A stretch of DNA of 64,000 nucleotides, from the NCBI GenBank assembly GCA_964544585.1, contig CAZJBV010000002.1, positions 67,468 to 131,467 on the forward strand, written 5' to 3'. This DNA is from an uncultured Gammaproteobacteria bacterium (GTDB lineage Bacteria > Patescibacteriota > Microgenomatia > 2-02-FULL-39-11). The position numbers were made by a program, and so were the translations under genes. The notes below the pieces were generated by a model. The model was not told the DNA's origin. It did no database searches and saw only the letters and a program-made list of their open reading frames with translations. Below, piece after piece: positions 9,544 to 56,227 of the stretch (its first letter is position 1; each line of letters starts with the position of its first letter).

Positions 9544-10242
9544 ATGATAAATATTAAAAATTTCTTGCCTTTAAGTAAAAATAAAATACCCACGTTAGAT
9601 CAAGAATTATGGCTAAAACAACAGGAAATTAAAACTTTTATCGATATAGGGGCGTATGTAGGAGAATACGTTGATTATGCCTACAGATTATATCCGAAAG
9701 CAAATATTTATGCTTTTGAACCTCTCCTTGATAGTTACAATTTATTAGTCAAGAAGAAAAATTACATAAAAAATCTTTATACATATAATATAGCTCTGGG
9801 AAATAAGAAATATAAAAGCACATTTTATCGAAGTTCATATGCCCCTTCCTCCTCAATCTTACAAATGGGCATATCTCATAAGAAAAACTTTCCCCATACT
9901 GCAAACCTAAAAAAAGAATACGTAAAAGTAGACACGTTAGATAATGTATTCAGGAAGGAAGAACTAAAGACAAAAATTTTTGTTAAGATTGATACGCAAG
10001 GTTATGAAGATAGGGTAATAAAAGGAGGGGAAAAAACATTAAAAAGAACTGCAATCATCCAAACGGAAGTAAGCTTCGTCCTTCTGTATAAAGGACAAAA
10101 ATTGTTTGGTGATATTTATAATTTACTTGCAAATTTAGGCTTTATTTTCTGTGGTTATCGCAATCAAATTTTATCTCCCAAGAATGGGAAACCTCTCCAG
10201 GCCCATGTTTATTTTATAAATCCTTTAAGACTAAAATTATGA
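9544..10242 (+). CDS. FkbM family methyltransferase
   Basis: 'FIDIGAYVGEY...AFEP' and 'KIDTQGYEDRVIKG' match the Methyltransf_21/FkbM pattern. Confidence 0.8.
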   Translation: MINIKNFLPLSKNKIPTLDQELWLKQQEIKTFIDIGAYVGEYVDYAYRLYPKANIYAFEPLLDSYNLLVKKKNYIKNLYTYNIALGNKKYKSTFYRSSYAPSSSILQMGISHKKNFPHTANLKKEYVKVDTLDNVFRKEELKTKIFVKIDTQGYEDRVIKGGEKTLKRTAIIQTEVSFVLLYKGQKLFGDIYNLLANLGFIFCGYRNQILSPKNGKPLQAHVYFINPLRLKL

Positions 10243-11204
10243 AAGATTTCACTATAGCGTTATGCACCTGCAACCGCTTATCGCTTCTAAAAAAATGTTT
10301 AAAAAGCATTATGGCAGATATTTCTCTCGAACAAATTGTAGTTTTGGATGCTGGCTCTATAGACGGTTCAGTTGAATTTCTAAGACGTCATCATAAAAAG
10401 GTCAAACTGGTACAATATCCGAAAATTGGACAAGCAAAAAGCCTCAATCGATTCTTCAAAACAGTTAGATCCAAATATGCTTGCTGGGTTAGTGATGATA
10501 ATATTATCAAAAAAGGAATGCTCAAAAAGGCAGAGAGAATCCTAGATGAAAATCCCCATATAGGTATGGTCGGATTGAAAGTCAAAGACGTCACTGGACC
10601 ATATAGAGACGAAGAATATATCGGAGGCATTTCCCAGGCTGGTATATTAAATGTAAATCAAGGTATGTTTCGCATGAACATTGCCCGAAAAGTGGGTTTT
10701 TTTGATGAAAAATTTCCAGATTATGGAATGGATGTAGATTTAACCACAAAAATTTTATTGGCTGGTCACAAAGTAGTCTATACAAAAAATATCGCCATAT
10801 TGCATTACCGCGATTACCATCAATATCCAGGGGCATTTGAGTTGGAAGATAGAAAAAAAAGATCCTTATTATCACACAAAATTTATGCTCGGAAATATCC
10901 AGTATTATGCAGAAAATATCGGCAAACAACTCTACTATATTACAGAACATATCTATTATTGCGATCGATAATCGTCATTCCGTTGCAATTAATCTATTCT
11001 TTTATATCCATCCCTTTGAGTAAAACAAGATTTATTTTTCTTCTTATCAATGCAAGGAGAAGGATAATCGATTTGAAAAATAGATATTTTGGTACAAAAC
11101 GAGATTGGAACAATATACTCCGCGGAAGATTTATCTCATACCTAGATCTCTGGTATAATCGGAACCGCGACTTTTACTTGGTTCAAAAAATAAAAAATCA
11201 TTGA
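10239..11204 (+). CDS. GT2 glycosyltransferase
   Basis: 'FTIALCTCNR' and 'VVLDAGSIDGS' are GT2 motifs; the C-terminal region has a TM segment. Confidence 0.75.
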   Translation: MKDFTIALCTCNRLSLLKKCLKSIMADISLEQIVVLDAGSIDGSVEFLRRHHKKVKLVQYPKIGQAKSLNRFFKTVRSKYACWVSDDNIIKKGMLKKAERILDENPHIGMVGLKVKDVTGPYRDEEYIGGISQAGILNVNQGMFRMNIARKVGFFDEKFPDYGMDVDLTTKILLAGHKVVYTKNIAILHYRDYHQYPGAFELEDRKKRSLLSHKIYARKYPVLCRKYRQTTLLYYRTYLLLRSIIVIPLQLIYSFISIPLSKTRFIFLLINARRRIIDLKNRYFGTKRDWNNILRGRFISYLDLWYNRNRDFYLVQKIKNH

Positions 11205-12262
11205 TAAAACACAAACCTAAACTAATCATCAAAAATAAAACTATTTCCCTTGAAAGCGATTGCTTTGTCGTGGCAGAAATAGGCCATAACCATCAGGGCA
11301 GTATCGAAATAGCCAAACAACTCTTTAAAGCAGCCAAAGAGTGTGGTGTCGATGCAGTCAAGTTACAAAAACGAAATAATAAAAAACTCTATACCCAGGA
11401 ATTTTATAATACTCCTTACAACAGCGAAAACGCATACGGACCAACATACGGCCGACACAGAGAAGCTCTCGAGTTTGGTGAAGGCCAGTTCAAGGAATTG
11501 AAAAAATATGCCGAGCATTTAGGATTAATCTTTTTTGCCACCCCATTTGATTTTGATAGCGTTGATTTTCTTGAGTCTATAGATACTCCCCTTTATAAAG
11601 TCGCATCAGGAGATTTGAGAAATATACCTCTTTTAGAATATATTGCCCGAAGGCAAAAGCCAATGCTTATTTCCACAGGCGGCGCGACCCTAGATGATGT
11701 CAAAAGAGCGTATAAGGTAGTAAGAGCCATCAATCCAAATTTTGCCATTCTACAATGCACCGCGTCATACCCGGCCGAGTTTTCAGAGCTAAATCTTCAT
11801 GTCATAAGTGAATATCAACGTCTCTTTCCTGACAACATCATTGGTTTTTCCGCTCATGACAACGGAATTGCCATGTCTGTAGCAGCCTATGTCCTAGGCG
11901 CAAGAGTTATCGAAAAACATTTTACCCTCAATAGAATCATGAAAGGTACAGATCACATATTTTCACTTGAGCCGGTTGGCATGAAGAAATTGGTCAGAGA
12001 TTTAAGAAGAGTCAAGGTGGGACTTGGAGATGGAGTTAAAAAAACGTATGAATCAGAAAAAGATCCAATACGCAAGATGAGTAAAACAATCGTCGCCGCA
12101 AAAGATATTCGTAAAGGACATGTTTTGACAAGTAAAGATTTAGCATTTAAATCACCAGGCGGTGGATTGCATCCCTATCAAATTGAAAAACTAATTGGAA
12201 AAAAAGTCAAAATACCTCTCAAAGAGGACGAGACAATAGCATTCGAACATCTTTATAAATGA
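11201..12262 (+). CDS. neuB: N-acetylneuraminate / nonulosonic acid synthase (NeuB family) with C-terminal SAF domain
   Basis: 'VVAEIGHNHQGS', 'FATPFD', 'YKVASGD', 'LISTGGATLDDV' and 'LQCTASYPAEF' align closely with the NeuB/PseI/LegI family. Confidence 0.85.
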   Translation: MIKHKPKLIIKNKTISLESDCFVVAEIGHNHQGSIEIAKQLFKAAKECGVDAVKLQKRNNKKLYTQEFYNTPYNSENAYGPTYGRHREALEFGEGQFKELKKYAEHLGLIFFATPFDFDSVDFLESIDTPLYKVASGDLRNIPLLEYIARRQKPMLISTGGATLDDVKRAYKVVRAINPNFAILQCTASYPAEFSELNLHVISEYQRLFPDNIIGFSAHDNGIAMSVAAYVLGARVIEKHFTLNRIMKGTDHIFSLEPVGMKKLVRDLRRVKVGLGDGVKKTYESEKDPIRKMSKTIVAAKDIRKGHVLTSKDLAFKSPGGGLHPYQIEKLIGKKVKIPLKEDETIAFEHLYK

Positions 12263-13083
12263 AAAAACCACTTGAATTATTTAAACTCGATGGCAATATA
12301 GCACTGGTTACTGGAGGCCTAGGAAATCTAGGGCCTTATTGGATAAAAGCGTTAAAAGGGGGTGGAGCAAAAGTAGTTTCGATTGATCTGCCGAACATAA
12401 AATCCTCTGACTATTACTTTTCCGTCGATATCACCGATATAAATCGTCTTCATAAATTACATACACAGATATCAAAAGATTTGGGAAGCGTTACAATACT
12501 TGTAAACAATGCCGGCATTGACGCACCACCCTCAAAGCACCTCGAAGGTGGCCGGCTTGCCCTGAGCGCAGTCGAAGGGGACTCCTTCGAGGTGAAGGAA
12601 ACAGGCTATGACTCCCCCGAGGTGAACAGGCTATATAAAAATATGTGGGATGTAAATGTCCAAGGTCTGGTAAATTGCATAGAAGTTTTTTCACCAGATA
12701 TGAAAAAGCAGAAGAAAGGAAGCATTATAAATATTGGCTCTCTCTATGGAGAAAAGTCACCAGACGAAAGATTATATAGCCATCTCGGTTTTGACAAGCC
12801 CTGGGCCTATGGAGCCACAAAAGCAGCGGTCCTTCAAGTTACTCGTCACTACTCCACCCGCCTTGCCAAATATAATATCAGAGTAAATACCTTATCACCG
12901 GGAGGAGTATTTAATAATCAAGATAAAGAATTTGTAAAAAAATATTCACAACACGTTCCCTTAGGCCGAATGGCAGAAAAAGTTACCGACCTTGCCGGCC
13001 CGCTTCTCTTTCTTGCCTCCGATGCATCAATCTATGTTACAGGCATAAATCTTCAAGTTAATGGCGGCTATACAGCTTGGTAA
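12259..13083 (+). CDS. SDR family oxidoreductase carrying an in-frame GC-rich palindromic element insertion
   Basis: 'ALVTGGLGNLG', 'NNAGI' and 'YGATKAAV' are SDR motifs. About 20 extra residues ('PPSKHLEGGRLALSAVEGDSFEV...') between NNAG and the catalytic region are encoded by the GC-rich repeat. Confidence 0.8.
   Translation: MKKPLELFKLDGNIALVTGGLGNLGPYWIKALKGGGAKVVSIDLPNIKSSDYYFSVDITDINRLHKLHTQISKDLGSVTILVNNAGIDAPPSKHLEGGRLALSAVEGDSFEVKETGYDSPEVNRLYKNMWDVNVQGLVNCIEVFSPDMKKQKKGSIINIGSLYGEKSPDERLYSHLGFDKPWAYGATKAAVLQVTRHYSTRLAKYNIRVNTLSPGGVFNNQDKEFVKKYSQHVPLGRMAEKVTDLAGPLLFLASDASIYVTGINLQVNGGYTAW
12538..12624. repeat. GC-rich nested palindromic element C1: arms CACCTCGAAGG/CCTTCGAGGTG plus an extra partial arm, in-frame inside the SDR gene
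   Basis: cacctcgaaggtggccgg...gggactccttcgaggtg at 12538-12594 and actcccccgaggtg at 12611-12624. A local GC spike in an AT-rich gene. Confidence 0.8.
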
Positions 13084-13087
13084 AAAT

Positions 13088-14518
13088 ATGAAATATCCCA
13101 CAAATATTTATCACTGGATTGGCAACAGAGAAACTGGAAATAAAGATACTAAATTAATTGCAAAAATAAATCCAAGAAACGGGCAAAAAATAGCCAAAAT
13201 AATTCAAGGAACCAATCAAGAGGTAAAATATGCAATTACCAAATCTTTAAATGCTTTTTCATCTTGGAGTCAAACTTCAATAATATCTCGTGCCAACATT
13301 CTCCGCGAGACCGCCATTTTGGTGCAAAAAAGAAAGGATGAAATAGCCCAAATAGTTCATCTGGAAACGGGAAAATCTTTAAAAGATGCAACAAACGAAG
13401 TAGAAGGAGCAATAGAATTAGGCTTTTTTATGGCAGGGGAGGGGAGAAGATATTATGGGAAAACAACCACATCGGCACAAGAAAATAGGTGGGCATACAC
13501 CATAAGACAACCAGTTGGAGTTTGCGCTTTAATAGTTCCTTTTAATACTCCTATTGCCAATGTAACCTGGAAAGCATTTCCAGCCCTTCTTTGCGGAAAT
13601 ACGTGTGTGGCAAAAGCTGCCTCAGATACGCCTTACACTCCCATTTGGTTTGGGAAAATTCTAAAAGAGGCAGGACTGCCTGACGGAATCTACAACGTCA
13701 TCCAAGGAAGCGGAGAGGAAATAGGAGGTGCTCTGCTTGATGACAGAAGAATAAATCTTATTAGCTTCACCGGATCGGTCGAAACCGGAAAATATATTCA
13801 AAAAAAGGTTGCAAATCGTTTGGTCAAAGTAAGTCTTGAATTGGGAGGAAAAAATCCTCTTATTGTCTGCGACGACGCCAATCTAGAAGAAGCTGCCAAC
13901 CAGGCAATACTTTCAGCATTTTCCAATGCCGGACAGCGCTGTTCTTCCGGAAGTAGAATTATAGTTTTCGAAAAAATATACGAACAATTCAAAAAGCTTT
14001 TTATAGAAAAAACAAAAACTTACAAAGTAGGACCAGTGATAAATGAAAAGCAATTAAACAAAATGATTTCAATCATGGACAGAGTTGTTAAGTCTGGAAA
14101 AGTTAAATTAATTTTAGGAGGAAATAGAAAAGTCGATAGACCAGGTTACTTTCTTGCTCCTACTATTCTCGAATCAAAACAAAAAAGCGAGTATGATGAC
14201 GAAGAATTATTTGGCCCAATCACTTCTCTCTATAAAGTAAAAAATTTAGATCAAGCTTTAGAATTAACAAACAACTCTCCCTATGGTTTAACCGCAGCAA
14301 TTCATACCGCAAGTATTCATAAAGAAGAGTATTTTATAAATCACGCCAGAGTAGGAGTAGTATCAGTAAACGGCCCGACCTATGGCAGCGAACCCCATTT
14401 GCCTTTCGGAGGCTTGAGAAATTCGGGTAATGGTCATCGAGAACCAGGCACAGAAGCCCTAGACTTCTATTCTGAATGGAAAACCGTTTATATAAAGCAC
14501 AGCCCCGAGAATATTTAG
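13088..14518 (+). CDS. aldehyde dehydrogenase family protein
   Basis: 'ELGGKNP' and 'GQRCSSGSR' are ALDH catalytic motifs. The alternative start at 13061 overlaps the upstream gene. Confidence 0.85.
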   Translation: MKYPTNIYHWIGNRETGNKDTKLIAKINPRNGQKIAKIIQGTNQEVKYAITKSLNAFSSWSQTSIISRANILRETAILVQKRKDEIAQIVHLETGKSLKDATNEVEGAIELGFFMAGEGRRYYGKTTTSAQENRWAYTIRQPVGVCALIVPFNTPIANVTWKAFPALLCGNTCVAKAASDTPYTPIWFGKILKEAGLPDGIYNVIQGSGEEIGGALLDDRRINLISFTGSVETGKYIQKKVANRLVKVSLELGGKNPLIVCDDANLEEAANQAILSAFSNAGQRCSSGSRIIVFEKIYEQFKKLFIEKTKTYKVGPVINEKQLNKMISIMDRVVKSGKVKLILGGNRKVDRPGYFLAPTILESKQKSEYDDEELFGPITSLYKVKNLDQALELTNNSPYGLTAAIHTASIHKEEYFINHARVGVVSVNGPTYGSEPHLPFGGLRNSGNGHREPGTEALDFYSEWKTVYIKHSPENI

Positions 14519-15295
14519 ATGATGAAAATTCCATCAATTATTGCTCTGATACCCGCACGCTCCGGATCTAAAAGAATTAAAGATAAAAATATAAATGAAC
14601 TTGCTGGCCATCCACTAATCGCCTACACCATAGCGGGAGCGTTAGAATCAGGAATATTTAAAAAAATAATAGTCTCAACCGATAGCCCACAATACGCCAA
14701 AATTGCAGAATATTATGGCGCAGAAGTTCCCTTTTTGCGTCCTTCCGAGTTTGCCAAGTCGACTTCACCTGACATCGAATGGCTCCATTACACTCTGAAA
14801 AAACTCCGGAATGATGAAAATGGCACAATTGAAGACTGTTTTGCCATTTTAAGACCCACAAGTCCGGGAAGGTTATCCGAAACCATAAAACGGGCTTGGA
14901 AGCTATTTCTCGATGATGGCAATGCAGATAGTCTTCGCGCAGTTGAAATTTGCTCTCAACATCCGGCTAAAATGTGGATTGTTGATAAAAAGATTAATCG
15001 CATCCATCCCGTAATGGTCAATCCTGACAAAAAAGATATACCATGGCACAGCCAGCAATTTCCCTCCCTTCCCAAAGTCTATGCTCAAAATGCCAGTCTG
15101 GAAATTGCCTGGACTCGCCTTCCTCTTGAAAAATATTCTCTATCAGGAGATAAAATCATGCCCTTCTTTACTAATGAATCAGAAGGATTTGATCTAAATT
15201 CTGAATGGGACTGGATAATTGCTGAAAATATGCTAAAGAGAGGCAGATTGATTCTGCCAAAAGTAAAGAAACCTCCGTATGAAAAATATTCTTAA
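14519..15295 (+). CDS. neuA: acylneuraminate (nonulosonate) cytidylyltransferase, CMP-sugar synthetase
   Basis: N-terminal 'IIALIPARSGSKRIKDKN' is the CTP_transf_3 signature. Confidence 0.8.
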   Translation: MMKIPSIIALIPARSGSKRIKDKNINELAGHPLIAYTIAGALESGIFKKIIVSTDSPQYAKIAEYYGAEVPFLRPSEFAKSTSPDIEWLHYTLKKLRNDENGTIEDCFAILRPTSPGRLSETIKRAWKLFLDDGNADSLRAVEICSQHPAKMWIVDKKINRIHPVMVNPDKKDIPWHSQQFPSLPKVYAQNASLEIAWTRLPLEKYSLSGDKIMPFFTNESEGFDLNSEWDWIIAENMLKRGRLILPKVKKPPYEKYS

Positions 15296-17195
15296 TCAAA
15301 CAGGGTATATAGGAGCTAATACATTCCAGCTACTTGAAAAAAAGAAGTATCTTGACACAATTGCCGATTGTATACGCTACAATACGCTTTTATCTGTAGC
15401 TCGCGCCGGCACAGGACACTTGGGAGCTTCTCTTTCAATAATAGAAACGCTAACTGAAATTTATTTTCGTTCTTTTAACTTTGATCTACAAAATTTAAAT
15501 AATCCCCACCGCGACATCTTTATCCTCTCCAAAGGTCATGCAGCTCCATCTCTCTATACAACTTTAGCCGCCAAAGGCTATTTTCCCATAGAATCGCTTG
15601 ACTCTCTTCGAAGACTCAATGGTCTTCAAGGTCATTGCGATATTGTAACGTTGGGTATTGAAGCAAATACCGGCTCTCTGGCCATGGGTCTATCCAAAGC
15701 AGTAGGCTACTCAATCTTAAAAAAAAGAATGGGATTAAAAGGTAATGTCCTGTGTTTAGTCGGAGATGGAGAATTACAAGAAGGCCAATGCTGGGAAGCC
15801 TTTCTTTCGGCAATAAGTTTCTCTTGTGACAATTTATTCGTTGTCATAGACGATAACCAAGTCCAGACAGATCAATACACCAATAATATTGTTAAGTACA
15901 ATGACATAATAAGTACGCTTTCCTCAATAGGTTTTGCAGTAGTTGAAAAAAACGGTCGGAAAAGCGATGAAATCTACAAAGGTTTTAACTCATTAAAAAA
16001 AGCCAAAATACCAAAACTCCTCTATCTTCATACAGTCAAAGGCCAGGGGGTTTCATATATGGAACACACGAATATATTGAATAAAAAAAATGCTAAATAT
16101 ATCTGGCACAACAAACCACCAACAAAAGAATTATTAAGAATTGCTCTCGAAGAAATTTTAAAAAGGATTAAAAATATTCTTAAATCAGAAAATCTTTCAT
16201 TCAATATAAACCCATCTCTACAGTCTATACCGAGGGAACCGGGAGAAACAGGTATCGAAGGAAAAAACATCATTGCTGGTTTTGCAGAAGGACTAAAAGA
16301 AATAGCCTCAAAAAATAAAAGAATCGTCGTCCTCGACGGAGATCTGGAAGAAGATTGTGGTTTCATCCCATTCCATAAATCATACCCCAAACGATTTTTT
16401 GAAATGGGGATTATGGAACAACACATTGTTTCAGCAGCATCAGCCTTTTCTCGACTTGGGTATATTCCTGTAATCTCCACATATGCCGCATTTCTCACCG
16501 CCAGAGCCAACGAGCAAATCTATAATTTAGTAACAGAAAGTGGAAAAGCCTTAATAGTCGGTAATATGGCAGGTATACTTCCGGCCACTCCAGGAAAGTC
16601 TCATCAAGCATTTCGGGATATTGCCTGCATGAAAAATATACCCGGAATTACCATGTACCAGCCAGTCTCGGCTCAAGATGTAAAAAACATCCTCAATAGA
16701 TATTTCCAAGGTTTATTAGGCAAAATTGTCTATATTCGTTTATCAATGGCCGCATCCCGCATTGAGTTGGCAACGTCACCCATTTCTTTAAAAAAAGGAG
16801 TTTCACATATACTCAAAAAAGGCAAAGATGCTCTCGCGATCGGGATAGGGCCTGTAGTTTTGGGAGAATGTCTAAAGTCAGCCGAAAATTTAAAAGAAAA
16901 TGGCATAAATGTCGAAATCTGGAATCATCCCTGGCTTATTGATTTTGACAAAAACCAATTGCGTCAAGCTTCAAAAAGGAAAATTCCTTTAATTATCATC
17001 GAAGATCACTATATAAAAGGAGGATTTGGTGAAAGCCTTTTGTCATTTTTAAGATTAAATAATATTTCCTTTAACAAAATAAAGCATATTGGGATAAAGA
17101 ATATTCCTCAGACAGGCTTTAGACAGGAGGCGCTCGAAACACAAGGGTTAGATAGCAACTCATTAATCTCCGGTATAAAAAGCTTGCTTCAATGA
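15279..17195 (+). CDS. transketolase (fused N-terminal TPP-binding and C-terminal pyrimidine-binding domains)
   Basis: 'GHLGASLS', 'SKGHAAPSLY' and 'GDGELQEGQCWEA' in the N-terminal half, plus a transketolase C-terminal half. Confidence 0.8.
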   Translation: MKNILNQTGYIGANTFQLLEKKKYLDTIADCIRYNTLLSVARAGTGHLGASLSIIETLTEIYFRSFNFDLQNLNNPHRDIFILSKGHAAPSLYTTLAAKGYFPIESLDSLRRLNGLQGHCDIVTLGIEANTGSLAMGLSKAVGYSILKKRMGLKGNVLCLVGDGELQEGQCWEAFLSAISFSCDNLFVVIDDNQVQTDQYTNNIVKYNDIISTLSSIGFAVVEKNGRKSDEIYKGFNSLKKAKIPKLLYLHTVKGQGVSYMEHTNILNKKNAKYIWHNKPPTKELLRIALEEILKRIKNILKSENLSFNINPSLQSIPREPGETGIEGKNIIAGFAEGLKEIASKNKRIVVLDGDLEEDCGFIPFHKSYPKRFFEMGIMEQHIVSAASAFSRLGYIPVISTYAAFLTARANEQIYNLVTESGKALIVGNMAGILPATPGKSHQAFRDIACMKNIPGITMYQPVSAQDVKNILNRYFQGLLGKIVYIRLSMAASRIELATSPISLKKGVSHILKKGKDALAIGIGPVVLGECLKSAENLKENGINVEIWNHPWLIDFDKNQLRQASKRKIPLIIIEDHYIKGGFGESLLSFLRLNNISFNKIKHIGIKNIPQTGFRQEALETQGLDSNSLISGIKSLLQ

Positions 17196-18088
17196 CTAAA
17201 AGTTTCGAGCTCTTAAGATTACTTCTGATCGGAATGAGCCTTAAACTCTATGCCGGCCTCAAATCCATTCCAGCAAATAATATTGATACATTTACTCGTA
17301 TATCAGCACTTCGGTCCTATAAAAATTTAGGTATTCAGCGAACTTTTGAATTGTTCATTCACCCGATTTCAACCATCAGGTATTTCGAATTTGACTTTGT
17401 CCAAAAAAATATAGAATTATCAAAGGTTCATAATATTTTGGATATATCGTCTCCTAGAATGTTTGGCCTTTATGTAGCCAAAAAAAATCCAAATATTAAA
17501 TATTTAATGATAAATCCTGATAAACATGATTTAACTGAAACTAATCAATTTAAAAATTCATTAAATCTGCATAATTTAACTCTTGATAGTTTAGATGCCC
17601 TAAAGCTTCCTTTTAAAAGTAATTCATTTGATATAGTTTTAAGCATCAGTGTCATCGAACACATTGCAGGAGTCGGTGACATGAAAGTAATAAAACAAAT
17701 ATGGCGGGTATTAAAGCCTGGCGGAAAATTAATAATTACTACTCATGTGGCAAAAAAAGAAAGATTGGAATACAGGGATTCAGACACCTATAATTTACAG
17801 GGAAAGAAAAAGAAATATTTTTTTCAAAGAATTTATAGTGGTGATTCATTAAAAAAGAGAATAATCAACGCAATTGGAATTAAGCCTAAATTAATCGAAA
17901 TCATTGGAGAAACTAAAAAGGGTTGGTTCGATTCATATATAACACGCTGGATTGAATACGATATAAAAGAAACAATTTTCGACCCATGGTACATGCTCAC
18001 CAAATTCAGAAAATATAATTCTATAGAGGAGTTACCTGGAATAGGTATAATCGCCGTAGTTTTTATTAAACCCCATCAACATTTATGA
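17192..18088 (+). CDS. class I SAM-dependent methyltransferase
   Basis: 'ILDISSP' followed by 'FDIVLSISVIEHI' and 'LKPGGKLII' is the Methyltransf_11 pattern. Confidence 0.75.
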   Translation: MTKSFELLRLLLIGMSLKLYAGLKSIPANNIDTFTRISALRSYKNLGIQRTFELFIHPISTIRYFEFDFVQKNIELSKVHNILDISSPRMFGLYVAKKNPNIKYLMINPDKHDLTETNQFKNSLNLHNLTLDSLDALKLPFKSNSFDIVLSISVIEHIAGVGDMKVIKQIWRVLKPGGKLIITTHVAKKERLEYRDSDTYNLQGKKKKYFFQRIYSGDSLKKRIINAIGIKPKLIEIIGETKKGWFDSYITRWIEYDIKETIFDPWYMLTKFRKYNSIEELPGIGIIAVVFIKPHQHL

Positions 18089-18921
18089 TATTTTCCAGAA
18101 AAATCGTTAACTCTATCAATACTTATCTCAAAAGACCAATCATCTATAAATTATTTCAGATGCAAAATGAATGGTTCAGAAAGCCTCCCTATGTATATTC
18201 TTATTATGGTTATAAAGTATATTATCCTCCACGAGACGACCTCATATACCTTTTGGCAACGGATGGCTCATACGAGCAAGGACTTTTAAACGCTTGTCAA
18301 AAACTTTTAAAAGACGATGCAGTTATTCTTGATGTAGGTGCCCATTTAGGTCTTATTACACTGGCATTATCAAGAATTCTGCCAAAAGCCCATTTCCACT
18401 GTTTCGAGCCTTCTCCACAAACCTTTAGATTACTCAAAACGACAGTCCGCAAAAATATTCTTTCAAAAAGAATATTTCTCAACAATATCGCCATCTTCAA
18501 ATCAAAAGATACTTCTACTTTCTTCGTTCATCGGGCAAAAGAGGCTTCAATAGATAGTATCAATATCCAAACAGGTCTTAAAATGATAAAAAAAATAAAA
18601 GTAAAAACCACAACTATAGACAGCTATGTTAAATCTTTAAATTTGCAAAAGGTAGATGCCATAAAAATCGATGCTGAAGGAGCTGAACTAGACATTCTCA
18701 AATCATCACTGATTACATTAAAAAAGTTTAAACCTGCCATTTTTTTCGAGACATGGCCGGAGGCGGCTGGCCTTTTTGGAATAAGTATGAAAGATATATA
18801 CAATTTTTTTTCTGGCAATGGTTATGCAGTATTTACCCAAAAAATAAAGCGCTTAAATCTGGATAATTTTTTAGACGCCACAAGAAGCGAAAGTAATTTC
18901 ATCTCTCTACCAAAATCATAA
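18085..18921 (+). CDS. FkbM family methyltransferase (tandem paralog 1)
   Basis: 'ILDVGAHLGLITL...HCFEPSP' and 'IKIDAEGAELDIL'. Confidence 0.8.
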   Translation: MIFSRKIVNSINTYLKRPIIYKLFQMQNEWFRKPPYVYSYYGYKVYYPPRDDLIYLLATDGSYEQGLLNACQKLLKDDAVILDVGAHLGLITLALSRILPKAHFHCFEPSPQTFRLLKTTVRKNILSKRIFLNNIAIFKSKDTSTFFVHRAKEASIDSINIQTGLKMIKKIKVKTTTIDSYVKSLNLQKVDAIKIDAEGAELDILKSSLITLKKFKPAIFFETWPEAAGLFGISMKDIYNFFSGNGYAVFTQKIKRLNLDNFLDATRSESNFISLPKS

Positions 18922-19769
18922 TGCCCAAATATTATTCCGACCTTTTTATAAAATCAGGCAAATTTATTTCCGGGAAAATAAAAGCCCCATTTTCGCTTTT
19001 GTTTCATCGCTTCAGAAATGAAATATTCAGAAAATCTCCCTACCATATGAAATATTTTGGTTTCAACTTGTATTATAAAAAGGGTGACGGAGGAATAAAT
19101 CATCTCGCCCGCGGATACTCATACGAACCAGACGTCATAGAGGCAATTATAAAAAATATACGCCCAAACTCTACCATAATCGATGTAGGAAGTAATATCG
19201 GCTTAATTACTCTTTCCGTGTTGCATTATTATCCCACCGCACACTTTCATTGTTTCGAACCATCTGGGTACTCTAATCAAATCTTTCAACAAACAATCTT
19301 GAAAAATAATTTAAACTCTAATATAAGATTGATAAAAAAAGGCCTCTACCACAAATCGGGAATCATTCCATTCTATACACACGGTATTCCTAACGCCCTA
19401 GGCGATGGTATTAAAGATACTAAAAGGGCTGGAATTTCAAAAAAGGCTCCAATCGAAGTAACTACTCTCGATAATTATGTTAAAAAATCTAAAATCCAAA
19501 AGATAGATCTCATCAAAATTGACGTCGAGGGTGCCGAGTTATTTGTCCTAAAAGGAGGAAGAAAATCAATTTTAAAATATCGTCCTCTTATCCTTTTTGA
19601 GGCAAACCCAGTAAACCTTCAAGCATATAATCTGATCCCGGGTGACATCTATCACTTCTTTTCAAAAATTGACTATAAAATCATTAGCCTTTCCGGAGAA
19701 ATATTAGATTTAGAAAAATTTGTAACTATGACCCAAAAAGTGGATAATTACTTGGCTTCTCCCATATGA
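18921..19769 (+). CDS. FkbM family methyltransferase (tandem paralog 2)
   Basis: 'IIDVGSNIGLITL...HCFEPSG' and 'IKIDVEGAELFVL'; paralogous to 18085..18921. Confidence 0.8.
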   Translation: MPKYYSDLFIKSGKFISGKIKAPFSLLFHRFRNEIFRKSPYHMKYFGFNLYYKKGDGGINHLARGYSYEPDVIEAIIKNIRPNSTIIDVGSNIGLITLSVLHYYPTAHFHCFEPSGYSNQIFQQTILKNNLNSNIRLIKKGLYHKSGIIPFYTHGIPNALGDGIKDTKRAGISKKAPIEVTTLDNYVKKSKIQKIDLIKIDVEGAELFVLKGGRKSILKYRPLILFEANPVNLQAYNLIPGDIYHFFSKIDYKIISLSGEILDLEKFVTMTQKVDNYLASPI

Positions 19770-21073
19770 AGGATATAGATATTCTTTGGTTCATCGAACA
19801 TATTGCCCGTGAGTTGGATGTAGCAGTCTTAGCAAGCTTAATTATCAACAAAAAATACGGCCTGACAGTAAAAATAGAACAGATATCAAATCTTAAGAAA
19901 ATAGAAAAGCTTTACAATCCCAAAATTATTCTCCTTCCTTATTGTTATGTTGCCACCGATGGTTATATAGAAAGAATAATTTCGATATGGCCAAAGAGTG
20001 TCTTTATCAATCTTGCTTGGGAGCAAATTTTTTATAATGCCAACAAAATATATAAATTGCCCCGCGACTATTTTGCTCGAAATTGCGTTTATCACCATGC
20101 CTGGAGCAAAACCAGAAAAAAAATACTTAAAAAGCTCGATATTCCAGACAAAAATATTTTTCTAAATGGCCAACCCGCCTATAAATTATATGATGAGCCA
20201 TACAAAAAACTTTTTATCAGTCGTAAAAATCTGGCAGAAAGATATCAATTAGATACTAACAAAACATGGATTTTCTTTCCCGAAAACTACAGTTGGTATT
20301 TCTATTCAAAAGAAACAATCCAAAAGATCATCCAGGATGGTCAAGGAGTAAAAACCATCAGCACTCTAAAAAATTATTGCAAAGACAGCTTTACAATTGC
20401 ACTTGAATGGTTAAACCAGATCGCAAAAAGATATGAAGATACTGTTGAAATCATCCTTCGTCCGCGTCCCTCATTTAGCCAAGAATATTTTTTATGGCAA
20501 GTACAGAAATTAAAACCGTCTCTATCCAAAAATATAAGAGTTATAAAAGATTTTTCCATCAGAGAATGGATTTTAGCAAGCGATATCGTAATTTCATCAT
20601 TTTCAACTTCACTTATCGAAGCCGCCATAGCTAAAAAAACTCTTTATATACTTGAACCTAATCCCATGCCAAATGAATTAATTGCAGAGTGGTATAAATA
20701 TGTCGAGAAAATAAAAAGTCTGAATGGATTATTCTCTATCCTGCCGGCCAGCCTGCCGGTAGGCATGGCAGGCAGGAATAATTACTTAAAGCTTCGTACC
20801 TGGGCACGGTCTAATTTTTATGTAAAAGATGATCCCATCCAAGGACTTGCGGATATTCTTGCAAAAATACCAGAAAAACAACTTCCAGAATTAAAAAATA
20901 CAAAAAGTCTATTCCGTCAAGCACAGAAAAAGGCATTCTCAATATTAAGTAAATTAAAAAAAGCAACAACAACCACGGATGCATATTTTAAATTAGATGA
21001 TGATAAAATCTTTGAGTCAGAATTAAAAGATAAAATGATTCGTTATAAAAACTTTATTGATAAATATCTATGA
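19766..21073 (+). CDS. hypothetical surface-carbohydrate biosynthesis protein (GT-B-like; candidate nonulosonate/ulosonate transferase)
   Basis: 435 aa. The 'IVISSFSTSLIEAAIAKK' region resembles the C-terminal domain of TagF/KpsC-type GT-B transferases. Carries an in-frame GC-rich palindrome at 20741-20776. Confidence 0.5.
   Translation: MKDIDILWFIEHIARELDVAVLASLIINKKYGLTVKIEQISNLKKIEKLYNPKIILLPYCYVATDGYIERIISIWPKSVFINLAWEQIFYNANKIYKLPRDYFARNCVYHHAWSKTRKKILKKLDIPDKNIFLNGQPAYKLYDEPYKKLFISRKNLAERYQLDTNKTWIFFPENYSWYFYSKETIQKIIQDGQGVKTISTLKNYCKDSFTIALEWLNQIAKRYEDTVEIILRPRPSFSQEYFLWQVQKLKPSLSKNIRVIKDFSIREWILASDIVISSFSTSLIEAAIAKKTLYILEPNPMPNELIAEWYKYVEKIKSLNGLFSILPASLPVGMAGRNNYLKLRTWARSNFYVKDDPIQGLADILAKIPEKQLPELKNTKSLFRQAQKKAFSILSKLKKATTTTDAYFKLDDDKIFESELKDKMIRYKNFIDKYL
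20741..20776. repeat. GC-rich palindromic element A1 (core CCTGCCGG..CAGGCAGG), in-frame in hypothetical CDS
   Basis: ctgccggccagcctgccggtaggcatggcaggcagg; encodes 'PASLPVGMAGRN'. Confidence 0.75.
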
Positions 21074-21915
21074 TTATAATGCGCATAACAGGAGGATTAG
21101 GCAATCAACTTTTTCAGTATGCCACAGGAAGGACCCTTTCGGAAAAGTTTAATACTACCTTAAAGCTTGATATCACTGAAGTATTGACCAAAAAATATCG
21201 AAAATTCTTATTAGATCGCTTTCGCATAAAAGCTCAAACCGCTTCTCCAGAAGTAGTAAAAAAATTCTGGAGATTCTCAGTTCACAATCTTTTCCGATCT
21301 CCCGAATATAAAGTATTCAAAGAAAAACACTTTCATTACGACCACGAATTTGAAAAAATAAAAGACAATACTTACATCGTAGGTTTTTTTCAGAGCGATA
21401 AATACTTCAACAATATCAAGCAGTTAATTAAAAGAGAATTCTCTCTCAAAAATGGGTTATCGACAGAAAGCAAAAAAATTGCTGCAAAAATAAAGTCAGT
21501 AAATGCCGTCTCTATAAATGTTAGAAGAGGAGATTATGTCAGTGATCCTATTATTCATAAGCGCCACGGATTTATAGGAGTAGACTATTTTTTGAAAGCC
21601 ATTAACTATATTAAAAAAAATACTTCCAATCCTCACTTTTTTTTATTTTCAGATGACATACAGTGGGTAAAAGAAAATCTTCATATCCCGCATCAATCGA
21701 CATACGTCGACCTAAACTTCCCAGATCATGTCGAAGAAAATCTTATTCTCGGTAGCCTTTGTAATCATAATATCATTACCAACAGCACCTTTAGTTGGTG
21801 GGTGGGCTGGTTAAATGCAAATAAAAAAAAGATCGTCGTCGCCCCTAAAAAATGGTTCAAAGATTTGGATGTTTCGACAAAAGATTTATTTCCAAAATCT
21901 TGGATTCTTCTTTAA
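21070..21915 (+). CDS. alpha-1,2-fucosyltransferase (GT11)
   Basis: 'ITGGLGNQLFQYA', 'NVRRGDY' and 'ITNSTFSWW' are the three GT11 signatures (FutC-like). Confidence 0.85.
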   Translation: MIIMRITGGLGNQLFQYATGRTLSEKFNTTLKLDITEVLTKKYRKFLLDRFRIKAQTASPEVVKKFWRFSVHNLFRSPEYKVFKEKHFHYDHEFEKIKDNTYIVGFFQSDKYFNNIKQLIKREFSLKNGLSTESKKIAAKIKSVNAVSINVRRGDYVSDPIIHKRHGFIGVDYFLKAINYIKKNTSNPHFFLFSDDIQWVKENLHIPHQSTYVDLNFPDHVEENLILGSLCNHNIITNSTFSWWVGWLNANKKKIVVAPKKWFKDLDVSTKDLFPKSWILL

Positions 21916-21917
21916 AA

Positions 21918-22943
21918 ATGGAAAATAATATTTTAGTCCGCATCATTAAAAATTATGACTGGCCAAATATCTTCCGTCAAACTCCCAAAGGTAAAGGGGT
22001 ATGGAGCGGAATAAAATTTACCGAAGATGAAATTTCGGATCCCGATTTTATTGTTGTCCTCAACTGGTCCTCCCAAAAAATATCCACCACAATTAACAAA
22101 AATAATGTCTGGCTTATTCTCCAGGAACCGCCTAACGAATTTTTTAAAATGATGCACAAAGGAAATAATGTATATTCACGAATATTTACCCAAGATATAA
22201 CATTAACAGGAAAAAGATTTGTTCATAGTCAGCCGGCAATTCCCTGGTTTATAAATATGACTTATGATGAGTTGAAAAAATGCAAAATTCCCAAGAAAAA
22301 TAAAACTGTTTCCCTTATTACCAGTCTTAAAAGTAATTTTTTAGGACACAAAAAAAGACTTGTATTTGCCCGGATGTTAAAAAGACAACTCGACGTCGAT
22401 ATTATCGCAACGAGTGATTACTACATCCGCCAAAATCCCCAAATTACACACAAAGAAATAGAAGCAAAATTATTAAATAAAGAATACACCAAAGTACTCA
22501 AGGATAAGTGGGATGCACTCGCTTCCTATAAATATAGTATCGTCATCGAAAATTATAAGGGTCCTCATTATTTCAGCGAAAAGCTAATTGATTGCTTTTT
22601 GACCTGGACTTTCCCCATCTACTTCGGCTGTATCAATTTAGGTCAGTATTTTCCCAAAGAGTCATTCATATCAATAGATATAGATAAACCAGATTCAATA
22701 AATAAAATAAAAGAAGTTTTAGGAAAAGACATCTGGAGTAGAAAGCTGAGAGCGTTAAACAAAGCCCGAACCCTTGTTTTAGAAAAATATCAATTTTTTC
22801 CTTATATGGCAAAATATGTAAAAGAGTGGCAAAAAATGGCAAAAACAAGAAAAAAAGAAAATATAATTATTCCTAAACAGGACTCTCTACTCTCCCAAGC
22901 TAAGATGAGTCTATTTTCTAAATTGAGAACGATAATAAAATGA
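21918..22943 (+). CDS. alpha-1,3/4-fucosyltransferase (GT10)
   Basis: 'YKYSIVIENYKGPHYFSEKLIDCFLTWTFPIYFG' matches the GT10 C-terminal motif. The ATG at 21918 avoids overlap with the upstream gene. Confidence 0.8.
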   Translation: MENNILVRIIKNYDWPNIFRQTPKGKGVWSGIKFTEDEISDPDFIVVLNWSSQKISTTINKNNVWLILQEPPNEFFKMMHKGNNVYSRIFTQDITLTGKRFVHSQPAIPWFINMTYDELKKCKIPKKNKTVSLITSLKSNFLGHKKRLVFARMLKRQLDVDIIATSDYYIRQNPQITHKEIEAKLLNKEYTKVLKDKWDALASYKYSIVIENYKGPHYFSEKLIDCFLTWTFPIYFGCINLGQYFPKESFISIDIDKPDSINKIKEVLGKDIWSRKLRALNKARTLVLEKYQFFPYMAKYVKEWQKMAKTRKKENIIIPKQDSLLSQAKMSLFSKLRTIIK

Positions 22944-54048: not shown

Positions 54049-55148
54049 TGAAAGTTGTTCTTGTCTATGACAGGATAAATAAATTCGGCGGAGCCGAAAG
54101 AATTCTTCTTGCCCTTCACGAAATCTTTCCCTCGGCCCCCTTATATACGGCAGTATACGACGAAAAAAAAGCACCATGGGCCAAAATCTTCTCCCAAATT
54201 AATCCCTCTTTTTTACAAAAATTCCCACTCGCCAAATCCCACCATGAACTCTATCCCTATCTTATGCCTCTTGCCTTCGAAACATTTGACTTTGCCAATT
54301 TCGATATCGTAATTTCAGTTACCTCAGAGGCAGCCAAAGGAATAATTACCCGTCCACCTACGGTTCACATAAGCTACATACTTACCCCAACGCGCTATAT
54401 TTGGAGCGGGGAAAAGGACTATTTACAAAATCCAGGTTTTGGCCCAATCGATCCTTTATTGAAATTATTATTGCCAACACTTTTTGCCAAGTTAAGACCT
54501 ATCGACTACATTCTCGCACATCGTCCGGATAAACTTATAGCCATATCAAATAATGTAATGAATAGAATTAAAAAGTATTACCACCGCGATGCAGACGTCT
54601 TATATCCACCAATAGATACAGATTTCTTTCGTCCTAAACTCCGGAAAATTCGAACTAACTATTTCCTTCTTGTTTCTCGTCTGGTTCCTTATAAAAGGGT
54701 AGACGTTGCCATCCAAGCCTTCAATAGACTAAAATATAAGCTTGTAATCATCGGAACCGGATCCGAGAAGGATAGACTCAAAAAACTCGCCAATAAAAAT
54801 ATTCAATTCGTCGGCAGTTTGACAGACGAGAAGCTTCTAGGCTACTATCAAGATTGTATTGCTCTTATATTTACGTCAGATGAAGATTTAGGTTTGGTAC
54901 CAATCGAAGCCCAAAGTTGCGGCAAACCAGTGGTGGCCCTTAAAGGTGGGGGAGCTCTCGAGACTGTTATAGAAGGGAATACTGGCGAATTTTATGACAA
55001 GCAAGTTCCCGACAGCCTTACAAAAACCATAAATCGATTTTTAAAAAAATCATATTCGCCCGACGATTGTCGCAATAATGCTTTAAGATTTAATAAAGAG
55101 AGATTTAAAAAAGAATTTTCTATTATGATTAAAAAAATAAAAATATGA
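54048..55148 (+). CDS. GT4 glycosyltransferase
   Basis: 'EDLGLVPIEAQSCGKPVVAL'. Confidence 0.8.
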   Translation: MKVVLVYDRINKFGGAERILLALHEIFPSAPLYTAVYDEKKAPWAKIFSQINPSFLQKFPLAKSHHELYPYLMPLAFETFDFANFDIVISVTSEAAKGIITRPPTVHISYILTPTRYIWSGEKDYLQNPGFGPIDPLLKLLLPTLFAKLRPIDYILAHRPDKLIAISNNVMNRIKKYYHRDADVLYPPIDTDFFRPKLRKIRTNYFLLVSRLVPYKRVDVAIQAFNRLKYKLVIIGTGSEKDRLKKLANKNIQFVGSLTDEKLLGYYQDCIALIFTSDEDLGLVPIEAQSCGKPVVALKGGGALETVIEGNTGEFYDKQVPDSLTKTINRFLKKSYSPDDCRNNALRFNKERFKKEFSIMIKKIKI

Positions 55149-56227
55149 GATTTGTCATTTTTGCAGGAGGAGTTGGCACCAGACTTTGGCCCCTATCGCG
55201 TAAAAAATCTCCCAAACAGTTTGAAAAAGTATTAGGAGACAAATCTACTTTAGAGCTTACTGTAGAAAGAATTCTTCCTTTATCCTCGTGGGATGACATT
55301 TATCTCGCCACCGGTAGTCGTTACACCGAATTGGTTAAAAAAATTCTCCCTGGCCTTCTCCTAGAAAATATTATTGGAGAACCTGAGATGAGAGACGTCG
55401 GTCCGGCCGTGGGACTCATGGTGTCCATTTTAGCAAAAACTTCACCCCACGACCCAATTGCCATCATCTGGAGCGACCATATTATCAAAAATGAGAATAT
55501 TTTTCACAATTGTTTAAAAACGGCAGAAACATTGGTATCACAGAAAAAGGCAAATTTGGTCTTTATCACTCAAAAAGCCAGGTTCCCAAGCCAAAACCTA
55601 GGCTGGATAGAATATGGCCATAAGATTGCCAAAGTTTCGGATGTAGAAATTTATGAATTTAAAAGTTTAACATATAGACCCGATTTAGGTCTTGCCCAAA
55701 ATTTTTTTAGCAGCGGACATCACGCCTGGAATGTGGGTTATTTTGTCACTACCCCGGTATTTTTGTTGGAAAAATATCGTCAGTTTAATCCAGATCTTTA
55801 TAGTGGCCTGAAAAAAATCCAGGAATCGTTTGCGACCTCTTCTTTTACAAAAGTGCTGCGGCAAATCTATCCCAAACTCGAAAAGATTTCTTTTGACGAA
55901 GCTATTCTTTCAAAGTTGGCTCCAAAAGAGGCGCTTGTCTTGGCCGAAGAACTTGGCTGGAGCGACGTCGGCGCCTGGGAGGCTCTAAAAGAAGCGCTTC
56001 AAACTTCTCCAGATCAAAATGTCGTCCAAGGAAAAGTACTAGTTGAAGGAAGCAAAGACAGTCTAATTTATAATTACACCAATCAAATGATCGTATCCAT
56101 CGACCTAAATGGTCTTTTGGTCGTCAATACCAAAGACGTCCTTCTCATCTGCCATAAAAATTCCGTCCCCAAAATAAAAAAAGTTGTCGAAAGTTTACAA
56201 GGCAGTAAAAACGACCATCTGACATAA
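55145..56227 (+). CDS. sugar-phosphate nucleotidyltransferase (mannose-1-phosphate guanylyltransferase-like, no cupin domain)
   Basis: 'FVIFAGGVGTRLWPLSRKKSPKQF' is the ManC/CpsB N-terminal signature. Confidence 0.75.
   Translation: MRFVIFAGGVGTRLWPLSRKKSPKQFEKVLGDKSTLELTVERILPLSSWDDIYLATGSRYTELVKKILPGLLLENIIGEPEMRDVGPAVGLMVSILAKTSPHDPIAIIWSDHIIKNENIFHNCLKTAETLVSQKKANLVFITQKARFPSQNLGWIEYGHKIAKVSDVEIYEFKSLTYRPDLGLAQNFFSSGHHAWNVGYFVTTPVFLLEKYRQFNPDLYSGLKKIQESFATSSFTKVLRQIYPKLEKISFDEAILSKLAPKEALVLAEELGWSDVGAWEALKEALQTSPDQNVVQGKVLVEGSKDSLIYNYTNQMIVSIDLNGLLVVNTKDVLLICHKNSVPKIKKVVESLQGSKNDHLT

Follow-up and report, generated by a model that had tools for sequence, protein, structure and literature searches.

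A 64,000-nucleotide stretch of DNA from an uncultured bacterium (contig CAZJBV010000002.1, positions 67,468 to 131,467; hereafter the window) carries a five-gene module that may encode a pathway for a CMP-activated, side-chain-trimmed dicarboxylic ulosonic acid. In this pathway, a nonulosonate would be oxidized at C8, would lose C8 and C9, and would be left with a carboxylate at C7. We favor this trimming pathway tentatively and put it a little short of an even chance, because some related loci depart from the pattern and because no phosphatase gene lies within the module in the clade of the window organism. The locus of interest spans 11201-17195 in window coordinates, which are used throughout, and holds five open reading frames (ORFs):

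11201-12262, + strand: NeuB-family synthase (Pfam PF03102 NeuB, 263 bits; C-terminal SAF domain, 41 bits)
12259-13083, + strand: classical short-chain dehydrogenase/reductase (SDR; Pfam adh_short and adh_short_C2)
13061-14518, + strand: aldehyde dehydrogenase (ALDH; Pfam PF00171 Aldedh, 474 bits)
14519-15295, + strand: CMP-ulosonate synthetase of the acylneuraminate cytidylyltransferase family (Pfam PF02348 CTP_transf_3)
15279-17195, + strand: fused transketolase-like (TK) protein of 638 amino acids (Transketolase_N, Transket_pyr, and Transketolase_C in one chain)

In the ORF list of the window, neighboring genes abut or overlap by 4 to 23 bp, and the five therefore look like a single operon. 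The TK and cytidylyltransferase ORFs share 17 bp. Inspection of the sequences found the catalytic motifs complete in all five proteins. The synthase ORF begins with a TTG at 11201 that overlaps the stop codon of an upstream GT2 gene, and its true start is uncertain; the NCBI version of the protein has 330 residues, versus 353 for the longest ORF. A TK sequence identical to that of the window is also present on short Logan contigs. An earlier note on this DNA had described a NeuB and a NeuA gene with an SDR and an ALDH between them and a full-length transketolase behind, and the ORFs bear out this layout in every element.

Conservation of the five-gene module

We scanned one genome per GTDB species with clade-specific synthase motifs and obtained at least 590 pattern-confirmed synthase relatives. 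The loci compared here are the best 80 of these; they come from more than 12 phyla, and all are metagenome-assembled genomes (MAGs). Gene content was counted by tblastn in the 48 loci whose flank downstream of the synthase was at least 7.5 kb long. All five genes were found in 21 of the 48, and 31 had at minimum the synthase, the ALDH, the CMP synthetase, and the TK. Taken singly, the CMP synthetase was present in 44 loci, the ALDH in about 43, and the TK in 37, and an SDR lay beside the synthase in 36. About a third of the loci (15/48) carried a KdsC-type HAD phosphatase within the module.

The gene order was mostly unchanged among these loci. The closest relatives were in a groundwater MAG of "Candidatus Gottesmanbacteria," with 62% identity for the TK and 73% for the synthase, and a single sequencing run, SRR12113383, contains both the window organism and this relative. 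The window organism is probably a Microgenomates-like member of the Candidate Phyla Radiation (CPR). The Gottesmanbacteria locus (L005) and a second locus (L008), with TK identities of about 61 to 62%, have the order NeuB-SDR-ALDH-cytidylyltransferase-TK, as in the window. The same order is found in Verrucomicrobiota locus L013 and Latescibacteria locus L014, whose synthases are about 62% identical to that of the window. These two have an additional small HAD gene after the synthase, and the TK of L014 is split in two. The arrangement is far beyond chance; the genes recur, mostly in this order, in loci of more than 12 phyla. The genes around the module vary between phyla; therefore, the module itself is the conserved unit.

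These data bear on whether the SDR, the ALDH, and the TK are only metabolic neighbors of an ordinary module for 2-keto-3-deoxy-D-glycero-D-galacto-nononic acid (Kdn) or sialic acid. Each of the three families is abundant and often housekeeping. However, the same five genes stand in the same order, often overlapping, within glycan clusters that otherwise differ from phylum to phylum, and the TK clade is distinct from housekeeping transketolases (about 30% identity to human TK, with an altered pocket). We therefore consider a chance neighborhood very improbable. The earlier note had assigned the three genes to the NeuB/NeuA module and had named their absence from close relatives as one observation that would speak against this; the set is instead retained across phyla.

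A search of a plasmid database gave a single match above 40% identity, on the 1.6-Mb replicon NZ_CP108509.1 of the cultured Streptomyces sp. NBC_01237 (L098, 812709-831740). Here a NeuB-like gene (48%), an SDR gene (40%), and a TK gene (33%) are adjacent. Their neighbors encode RraA-like, RmlD-like, HAD, class-III aminotransferase, AMP-binding, and O-methyltransferase proteins, together with a hydroxyphenylglycine-type group of a glyoxalase-fold (HmaS-like) protein, an FMN_dh protein, and an aminotransferase. Neither an ALDH nor a cytidylyltransferase is present in this cluster, whose sequence record is unannotated. Judged by its gene content, it is a natural-product cluster, and the recurrence of the NeuB-SDR-TK trio in it supports the trio as a functional unit. 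With an omega-aminotransferase where the module has the ALDH, the cluster would fit an aldehyde generated by the TK. Rosetta-stone fusions (P0128, P0034, and P0184) were also examined, and none was informative.

A full-text literature search found no description of a module of NeuB, TK, and ALDH, and the texts that paired "nonulosonic" with "transketolase" were unrelated. The protein families and the frame of a synthase followed by CMP activation are known. What sets the module apart is the conserved SDR/ALDH/TK tailoring set together with a NANS-type synthase. Sialic acids, legionaminic acid (Leg), pseudaminic acid (Pse), Kdn, and 3-deoxy-D-manno-octulosonic acid (Kdo) are key determinants of the cell surface, and, to our knowledge, no known biosynthesis of a nonulosonic or ulosonic acid involves thiamine pyrophosphate (TPP) chemistry.

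A synthase of the animal NANS type

The synthase belongs to the NeuB superfamily, with the PF03102 TIM-barrel domain, the SAF domain, and the metal-binding histidine pair. His219 and His240 align with the SDH and ERH motifs of NmeNeuB. The protein is about equidistant (160 to 170 bits) from the solved NmeNeuB, PseI, and SpsE structures. In NCBIfam, it scored 315.3 bits against the NeuB/LegI model TIGR03569 (cut-off, 399.65) and 257.6 bits against the PseI model TIGR03586 (cut-off, 340.25). With human NANS (NP_061819.2, N-acetylneuraminate-9-phosphate synthase), it shares 43% identity over 342 residues with one gap (304 bits), versus 31 to 38% with NmeNeuB, PseI, and annotated NeuB proteins.

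In a neighbor-joining tree, the module clade and the Streptomyces homologue form the sister group of animal NANS. They lie apart from annotated NeuB, PseI, and NmeNeuB, and also from the canonical NeuB paralogues adjacent to NeuC that some of these genomes carry in addition. The column of NmeNeuB Glu134 is an Asp (E134D) in every member of the module clade, as in NANS, and a survey describes this change in eukaryotic and archaeal NanS (PMC8208679). The cut-offs and the tree rule out a canonical NeuB, LegI, or PseI identity. The NeuB-family tree proposed in the earlier note thus places the synthase outside these three groups; therefore, an unusual ulosonic acid is a reasonable expectation, as that note had suggested.

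The relationship to NANS suggests what the first product may be. NANS enzymes use sugar 6-phosphates, namely, N-acetylmannosamine (ManNAc)-6-P and mannose-6-P (Man-6-P), and form N-acetylneuraminic acid (Neu5Ac)-9-P and Kdn-9-P. We know of no characterized activity in this lineage other than on hexose 6-phosphates. Met42 of human NANS, which we take to be a specificity determinant, is Ala in the window synthase and is uninformative. Profile searches of the window proteins found no gene for NeuC/GNE, for a ManNAc kinase, or for Leg/Pse precursors, and no aminotransferase, acetyltransferase, or hydrolase gene for hexosamine precursors. From its sequence, the synthase is of the animal NANS/Kdn-9-P type and is predicted to use a phosphosugar, and a Kdn-type nonulosonate 9-phosphate derived from Man-6-P would, by analogy, be the simplest first product.

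Two groups of known systems invite comparison. Canonical nonulosonic acid (NulO) clusters (NeuBCA, LegB-I/LegF, and PseB-I/PseF) likewise combine a NeuB-family synthase and a CTP_transf_3 enzyme in a surface-glycan locus and have a TIGR04396/BFO_1060-type transferase nearby. However, the module synthase lies outside the NeuB, LegI, and PseI clades and below the equivalog cut-offs. The Kdn pathway of Bacteroides thetaiotaomicron consists of a Kdn-9-P synthase, a Kdn-9-P phosphatase, and a CMP-Kdn synthetase. The module resembles this pathway and animal NANS in its NANS-sister synthase, its CMP-ulosonate synthetase, and the KdsC-family phosphatase of its relatives. It differs from them in that it adds an SDR, an ALDH, and a TK-like protein, and in that the window is without the phosphatase.

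Tailoring enzymes and the candidate trimming pathway

Among solved structures, the TK protein is nearest to human TK (225 bits) and to a split bacterial TK, and 1-deoxy-D-xylulose-5-phosphate (DXP) synthases score about half as high. Its NCBIfam scores were below cut-off for NF004559 (355.8 versus 488), TIGR00232 (104 versus 682), and the DXP synthase model TIGR00204 (174.7 versus 466). We compared 35 module TKs in an alignment that included human TKT and Escherichia coli TktA (from NC_000913.3). The residues for TPP and Mg binding, for cofactor activation, and for the C1 hydroxyl of the donor are invariant (the equivalents of human H37, H77, H110, D155, N185, H258, and E366). However, the sugar-phosphate site is lost in all 35 proteins: R318 is replaced by I, V, S, or A; H416 by M, Y, L, or F; and R474 by M, L, I, or S. 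In addition, S345 has become an invariant Asp, and D424 has become an invariant Pro. The window TK has R318I, S345D, H416M, D424P, and R474M, and a HMMER alignment of this protein independently agrees on the replaced positions.

We take E. coli R358, S385, H461, and R520 to be the equivalent residues that bind the sugar phosphate, and D469 (human D424) to be the one that reads the C2 hydroxyl of the acceptor. By these residues, the window TK is no classical sugar-phosphate transketolase, and a housekeeping or precursor-supplying role is disfavored, since the phosphate site is lost across the family. An engineered TktA carrying R358I/H461S/R520Q has enhanced activity on non-phosphorylated 5-keto-D-gluconate (PMC12016104). 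The window TK naturally has Ile, Met, and Met at the same three positions. We predict that it cleaves the terminal ketol (C8-C9) from an 8-oxo sugar acid.

The SDR has its best NCBIfam match, below cut-off, in the gluconate 5-dehydrogenase subfamily, and its TGxxxGxG (Rossmann) and Y184xxxK188 motifs are present. It is predicted to oxidize the penultimate C8 hydroxyl of the nonulosonate to a ketone. The best NCBIfam matches of the ALDH, all below cut-off, were alpha-ketoglutaric semialdehyde, 2,5-dioxovalerate, and succinate semialdehyde dehydrogenases. Its LELGGKNP (Glu) motif and the catalytic Cys294 in GQRCS are intact, and it is predicted to be an NAD(P)-dependent enzyme that converts a sugar-acid aldehyde to a second carboxylate. 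The cytidylyltransferase matched CTP_transf_3 in Pfam (77.9 bits; gathering score, 22.6). With 122.6 bits against the NCBIfam PseF model (cut-off, 205.7) and 30 to 40 bits against KdsB models, it is an equivalog of neither. The in-module phosphatase of the relatives is of the KdsC family (TIGR01670, 117.5 bits; cut-off, 106.95) and also matches a model of Kdn-9-P phosphatase. Among the loci examined, it was seen solely where the TK is also present.

These assignments can be joined into the following route. The NANS-like synthase would join phosphoenolpyruvate (PEP) and a hexose 6-phosphate, probably Man-6-P by analogy with NANS and Kdn-9-P synthase, into a 9-phospho-nonulosonate. A KdsC-family phosphatase would free the C9 hydroxyl; its gene must, on this route, lie elsewhere in the window genome. 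The SDR would then oxidize the penultimate C8 hydroxyl, giving a terminal alpha-hydroxy-ketone whose configuration, D-threo, is that of TK donors. The TK-like enzyme would take up C8 and C9 as a TPP-bound glycolaldehyde unit and leave an aldehyde at C7 on the pyranose ring. The ALDH would convert this aldehyde to a carboxylate, and the product would be a 3-deoxy-hept-2-ulopyranosaric acid, C7H10O8. Starting from Kdn, it would be the L-arabino isomer of Dha, which is the D-lyxo form of 3-deoxy-hept-2-ulosaric acid. The cytidylyltransferase would form the CMP-sugar, and the TIGR04396/BFO_1060-like transferase at 19766-21073 would add the sugar to a surface glycan. The sequences themselves show which genes are present, their complete motifs and conservation, the kinship of the synthase with NANS, and the altered pocket of the TK; we infer which substrates are used, which hydroxyl the SDR oxidizes, in what order the steps occur (on the free sugar or on the CMP-sugar), and what the product is. 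In Fischer projections, the C3'/C4' configuration of 8-oxo-Kdn, like that of 8-oxo-Neu5Ac, is by our derivation D-threo, as a TK donor must have.

The proposed route from 5-keto-D-gluconate to L-tartrate provides a chemical precedent. It consists of a dehydrogenase for the penultimate carbon (gluconate or idonate 5-dehydrogenase), a TK that removes a two-carbon unit, and a tartaric semialdehyde dehydrogenase (PMC7970118). The TK splits the terminal ketol of 5-keto-D-gluconate into a four-carbon aldehyde-acid and a two-carbon unit, and the aldehyde is then oxidized (PMC7970118). The module has the same three enzyme classes and would follow the same logic. The tartrate route differs in that it is catabolic or engineered, acts on a six-carbon acid, and relies on a promiscuous housekeeping TK, whereas in the module an ulosonate synthase and an enzyme for CMP activation are encoded together with these genes in one apparent operon. 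The natural enzymes of the tartrate route are still unconfirmed (PMC7970118).

The predicted product also has a counterpart in bacterial glycans. Dha reportedly occurs in the lipopolysaccharide (LPS) cores of Rhizobiaceae, and it has been described in the LPS core of Acinetobacter haemolyticus (PMC4019464). Therefore, ulosaric acids in bacterial glycans have a precedent. The product predicted here would have the same formula and the same architecture as Dha, a 2-keto-3-deoxy pyranose with carboxylates at both ends. It would differ in configuration, since our derivation from Kdn gives L-arabino, in contrast to D-lyxo in Dha. We know of no described biosynthetic route to Dha or to heptulosaric acids. 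A link from the module to the Rhizobiaceae that produce Dha was sought and none was found; the best TKs on Rhizobium plasmids are split, have 29% identity, and lie among siderophore and lipid genes. A further parallel is the pathway to 8-amino-Kdo (Kdo8N) in Shewanella, where the oxidase KdnB and the aminotransferase KdnA act on C8 of Kdo. There, too, the terminal carbon of an ulosonic acid is modified via an aldehyde before the sugar is incorporated. However, other enzyme families are involved, the carbon chain stays complete, and the aldehyde receives an amino group instead of being oxidized.

Two other roles for the TK must be considered. In the first, the terminal alcohol would become an aldehyde to which the TK adds a two-carbon ketol, giving an 11-carbon ulosonic acid. 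Addition of two carbons to aldehydes is natural for TKs, the lost phosphate pocket would suit a non-phosphorylated acceptor, and a synthase that adds three carbons combined with a TK that adds two would build higher-carbon sugars economically. The Streptomyces cluster, with its synthase, SDR, and TK but no ALDH, would also fit. However, the ALDH and the TK would then vie for one aldehyde, and nothing would be left for the ALDH itself to do, although only one or two loci with the TK are without an ALDH. The usual TK donors, moreover, are phosphorylated and would require the missing pocket, and no 11-carbon ulosonic acid in bacterial glycans is known to us. We consider such an extension quite unlikely. 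The earlier note had suggested a branched or extended-chain sugar as well as an unusual ulosonic acid; the latter agrees with the synthase tree, and in place of the former, the TK site, the KdsC-type phosphatase of the relatives, and the tartrate precedent indicate removal of two carbons and oxidation.

In the second, the TK would make an unusual aldose for the synthase, for example, a tetrose for a seven-carbon ulosonate whose end the SDR and the ALDH then oxidize. A heptulosaric acid would result here as well, and none of the enzymes would be left without a use. A pathway-specific TK that feeds a PEP-condensing enzyme has a precedent in the 3-amino-5-hydroxybenzoic acid (AHBA)/rifamycin pathways, where a transketolase forms imino-erythrose-4-P. 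However, the synthase belongs to the lineage known to us for hexose 6-phosphates, and the KdsC-type phosphatase implies a phosphorylated substrate, whereas the TK is without a phosphate site. A role in aldose supply therefore appears improbable.

Several points weigh against the trimming pathway. All of its chemical steps are inferred, and the pathway accounts for neither the fate of the two-carbon unit nor the identity of the acceptor. The family-level scores of the SDR and the ALDH are all far below the curated cut-offs. The in-module phosphatase is absent from the window and from its CPR relatives. Loss of the phosphate site is common to TK-like proteins outside the module (P0036, P0065, and P0101); it is therefore a trait of a wider family and no pathway-specific adaptation. 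Eight of the 48 loci, from Desulfobacterales together with two from Actinomycetota, have the SDR and the ALDH without the TK, and these must draw on another source of aldehyde, such as oxidation of the C9 hydroxyl. A few loci carry the SDR alone. Nine Anaerolineales loci have the ALDH and the TK with no adjacent SDR, which leaves the source of the 8-oxo group unexplained, and a substitute dehydrogenase sought beside the module in these loci was not found. One locus (L070) has the TK without the ALDH; its neighbors, checked for an aldehyde-consuming replacement, gave no informative Pfam matches. The exceptional loci may be functional offshoots, for example, with a nonulosaric acid made by C9 oxidation, or their missing genes may be encoded elsewhere.

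A rival to trimming is oxidation at the chain end, in which the SDR and the ALDH would turn the C9 primary alcohol into a carboxylate, the product would be a nine-carbon nonulosaric diacid, and the TK would be an auxiliary enzyme for precursor supply or recycling. This explains naturally the 6 to 8 loci that have the synthase, the SDR, the ALDH, and the CMP synthetase without the TK, as well as the status of the ALDH as the most consistently kept accessory gene. However, the TK, which is translationally coupled in the window through its 17-bp overlap, is too consistent for an optional helper. A precursor-supplying TK should retain the phosphate-binding residues, and none of the module TKs does; Man-6-P, moreover, requires no TK. 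The nine loci with the ALDH and the TK but no SDR also argue against it, and the SDRs and ALDHs of the TK-less loci form derived sub-clades, so that these loci do not represent the ancestral state. Terminal oxidation without shortening is thus rather unlikely.

If the trimming pathway is correct, heptulosaric acids would gain their first biosynthetic route, and the TK in it would be the first natural transketolase dedicated to the cleavage of sugar acids. Such an enzyme would be a template for TKs that act on non-phosphorylated sugar acids, with biocatalytic interest, for example, in tartrate production. In environmental bacteria, those of the CPR among them, the module would mark a glycan as yet unexplored, and the pathway would imply that CPR bacteria, Chloroflexota, Desulfobacterota, Acidobacteriota, Melainabacteria, and others carry a surface sugar of a new class. 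With at least 590 synthase relatives in GTDB representatives, the module is present in the genomes of several hundred species, and almost all that were examined are uncultured. This implies a common surface sugar, and present NulO surveys and annotation pipelines would give its genes the wrong names, "N-acetylneuraminate synthase" and "transketolase." The broad claim that this is a widespread, unrecognized pathway, in which a natural phosphate-independent TK trims a Kdn-type acid to a CMP-activated seven-carbon ulosaric sugar, is somewhat less likely than not.

The surrounding glycan island and side observations

The module lies within a glycan island of more than 55 kb, nearly all on one strand and with about 35% GC. 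The following features stand downstream of it:

17192-18088, + strand: accessory S-adenosylmethionine (SAM)-dependent methyltransferase (Pfam Methyltransf_11/31), with a 4-bp overlap with the TK stop codon
18085-18921 and 18921-19769, + strand: two tandem FkbM-family methyltransferases (Pfam Methyltransf_21)
19766-21073, + strand: candidate glycosyltransferase, TIGR04396/BFO_1060-like (NCBIfam, below cut-offs; no Pfam match)
21070-22943, just 3' of the module: GT11 protein (alpha-1,2-fucosyltransferase family, 118 bits) and adjacent GT10 protein (alpha-1,3/4-fucosyltransferase C-terminal domain)
55145-56227, glycan island: ManC-like nucleotidyltransferase
56234-56890, glycan island: Bac_transf priming enzyme

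The candidate transferase at 19766-21073 scored 96 bits against TIGR04396 (cut-off, 125) and 71 bits against BFO_1060_trans (cut-off, 200). Members of its family (f22) directly follow the TK in six other loci (L016, L022, L039, L053, L056, and L072). In 31 of 65 loci, a gene of family f5, f7, or f22 is no more than three genes away from the module.

Four methyltransferase genes flank the module: the three listed above and a further FkbM gene at 9544-10242. A gene 54% identical to the SAM methyltransferase at 17192-18088 stands directly after the TK in L008, and none was seen in other phyla. Genes of the FkbM family come as close as three genes to the module, or closer, in 12 of 65 loci. The sugar or the glycan may be O-methylated or methyl-esterified. 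It is uncertain whether the tandem FkbM genes at 18085-19769 belong to the module.

The GT11/GT10 pair also follows the module in the Gottesmanbacteria locus, a hint that the window organism, a likely CPR bacterium, makes a fucosylated glycan of H/Lewis-like type. Nearly all of the window from 1 to 59000 belongs to the island, which encodes more than 15 glycosyltransferases, DUF2079 and DUF4012 proteins, a flippase, and methyltransferases. Four genes for PMT_2 (ArnT-like) membrane proteins lie in it as well, one of them on the - strand and the other three on the + strand. The island makes up a very large share of a probably small CPR genome.

Other observations concern the relatives. In the Gottesmanbacteria locus, a gene for a 669-residue, polytopic-membrane-like protein (7220-9229 of L005), with only a weak DUF6541 match, is inserted between the ALDH and cytidylyltransferase genes. 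In five loci (L010, L014, L028, L042, and L063), a canonical NeuB-NeuC(Epimerase_2)-NeuA set lies a few kilobases from the NANS-like module. Therefore, the two sets are not redundant, and these genomes appear to produce two different ulosonic acids.

Locus L007 encodes a TK-like protein (P0036, 48% identity) with no neighboring NeuB gene, and TK relatives below roughly 50% identity are therefore taken to lie outside the module. In this locus (10001-12709), the TK-like gene is followed by a KdsC-like HAD gene (49% identity to the module phosphatase), again with no NeuB nearby. The family of TKs without a phosphate site may thus pair with sugar phosphatases in other pathways too.

Desulfobacterales loci (L025, L044, L052, L065 to L067, L081, and L084) have a conserved gene set 5' of the module. 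As read from representative sequences, the set encodes an acyl-AMP ligase-like protein, an NAD-epimerase, a protein like AONS or serine palmitoyltransferase, and an MsbA-like ABC transporter. In several of these loci, the representative sequences also include LptF/LptG-like genes and a nucleotidyltransferase gene. This set suggests that, in Desulfobacterales, the sugar decorates an LPS-like or aminolipid-anchored glycan.

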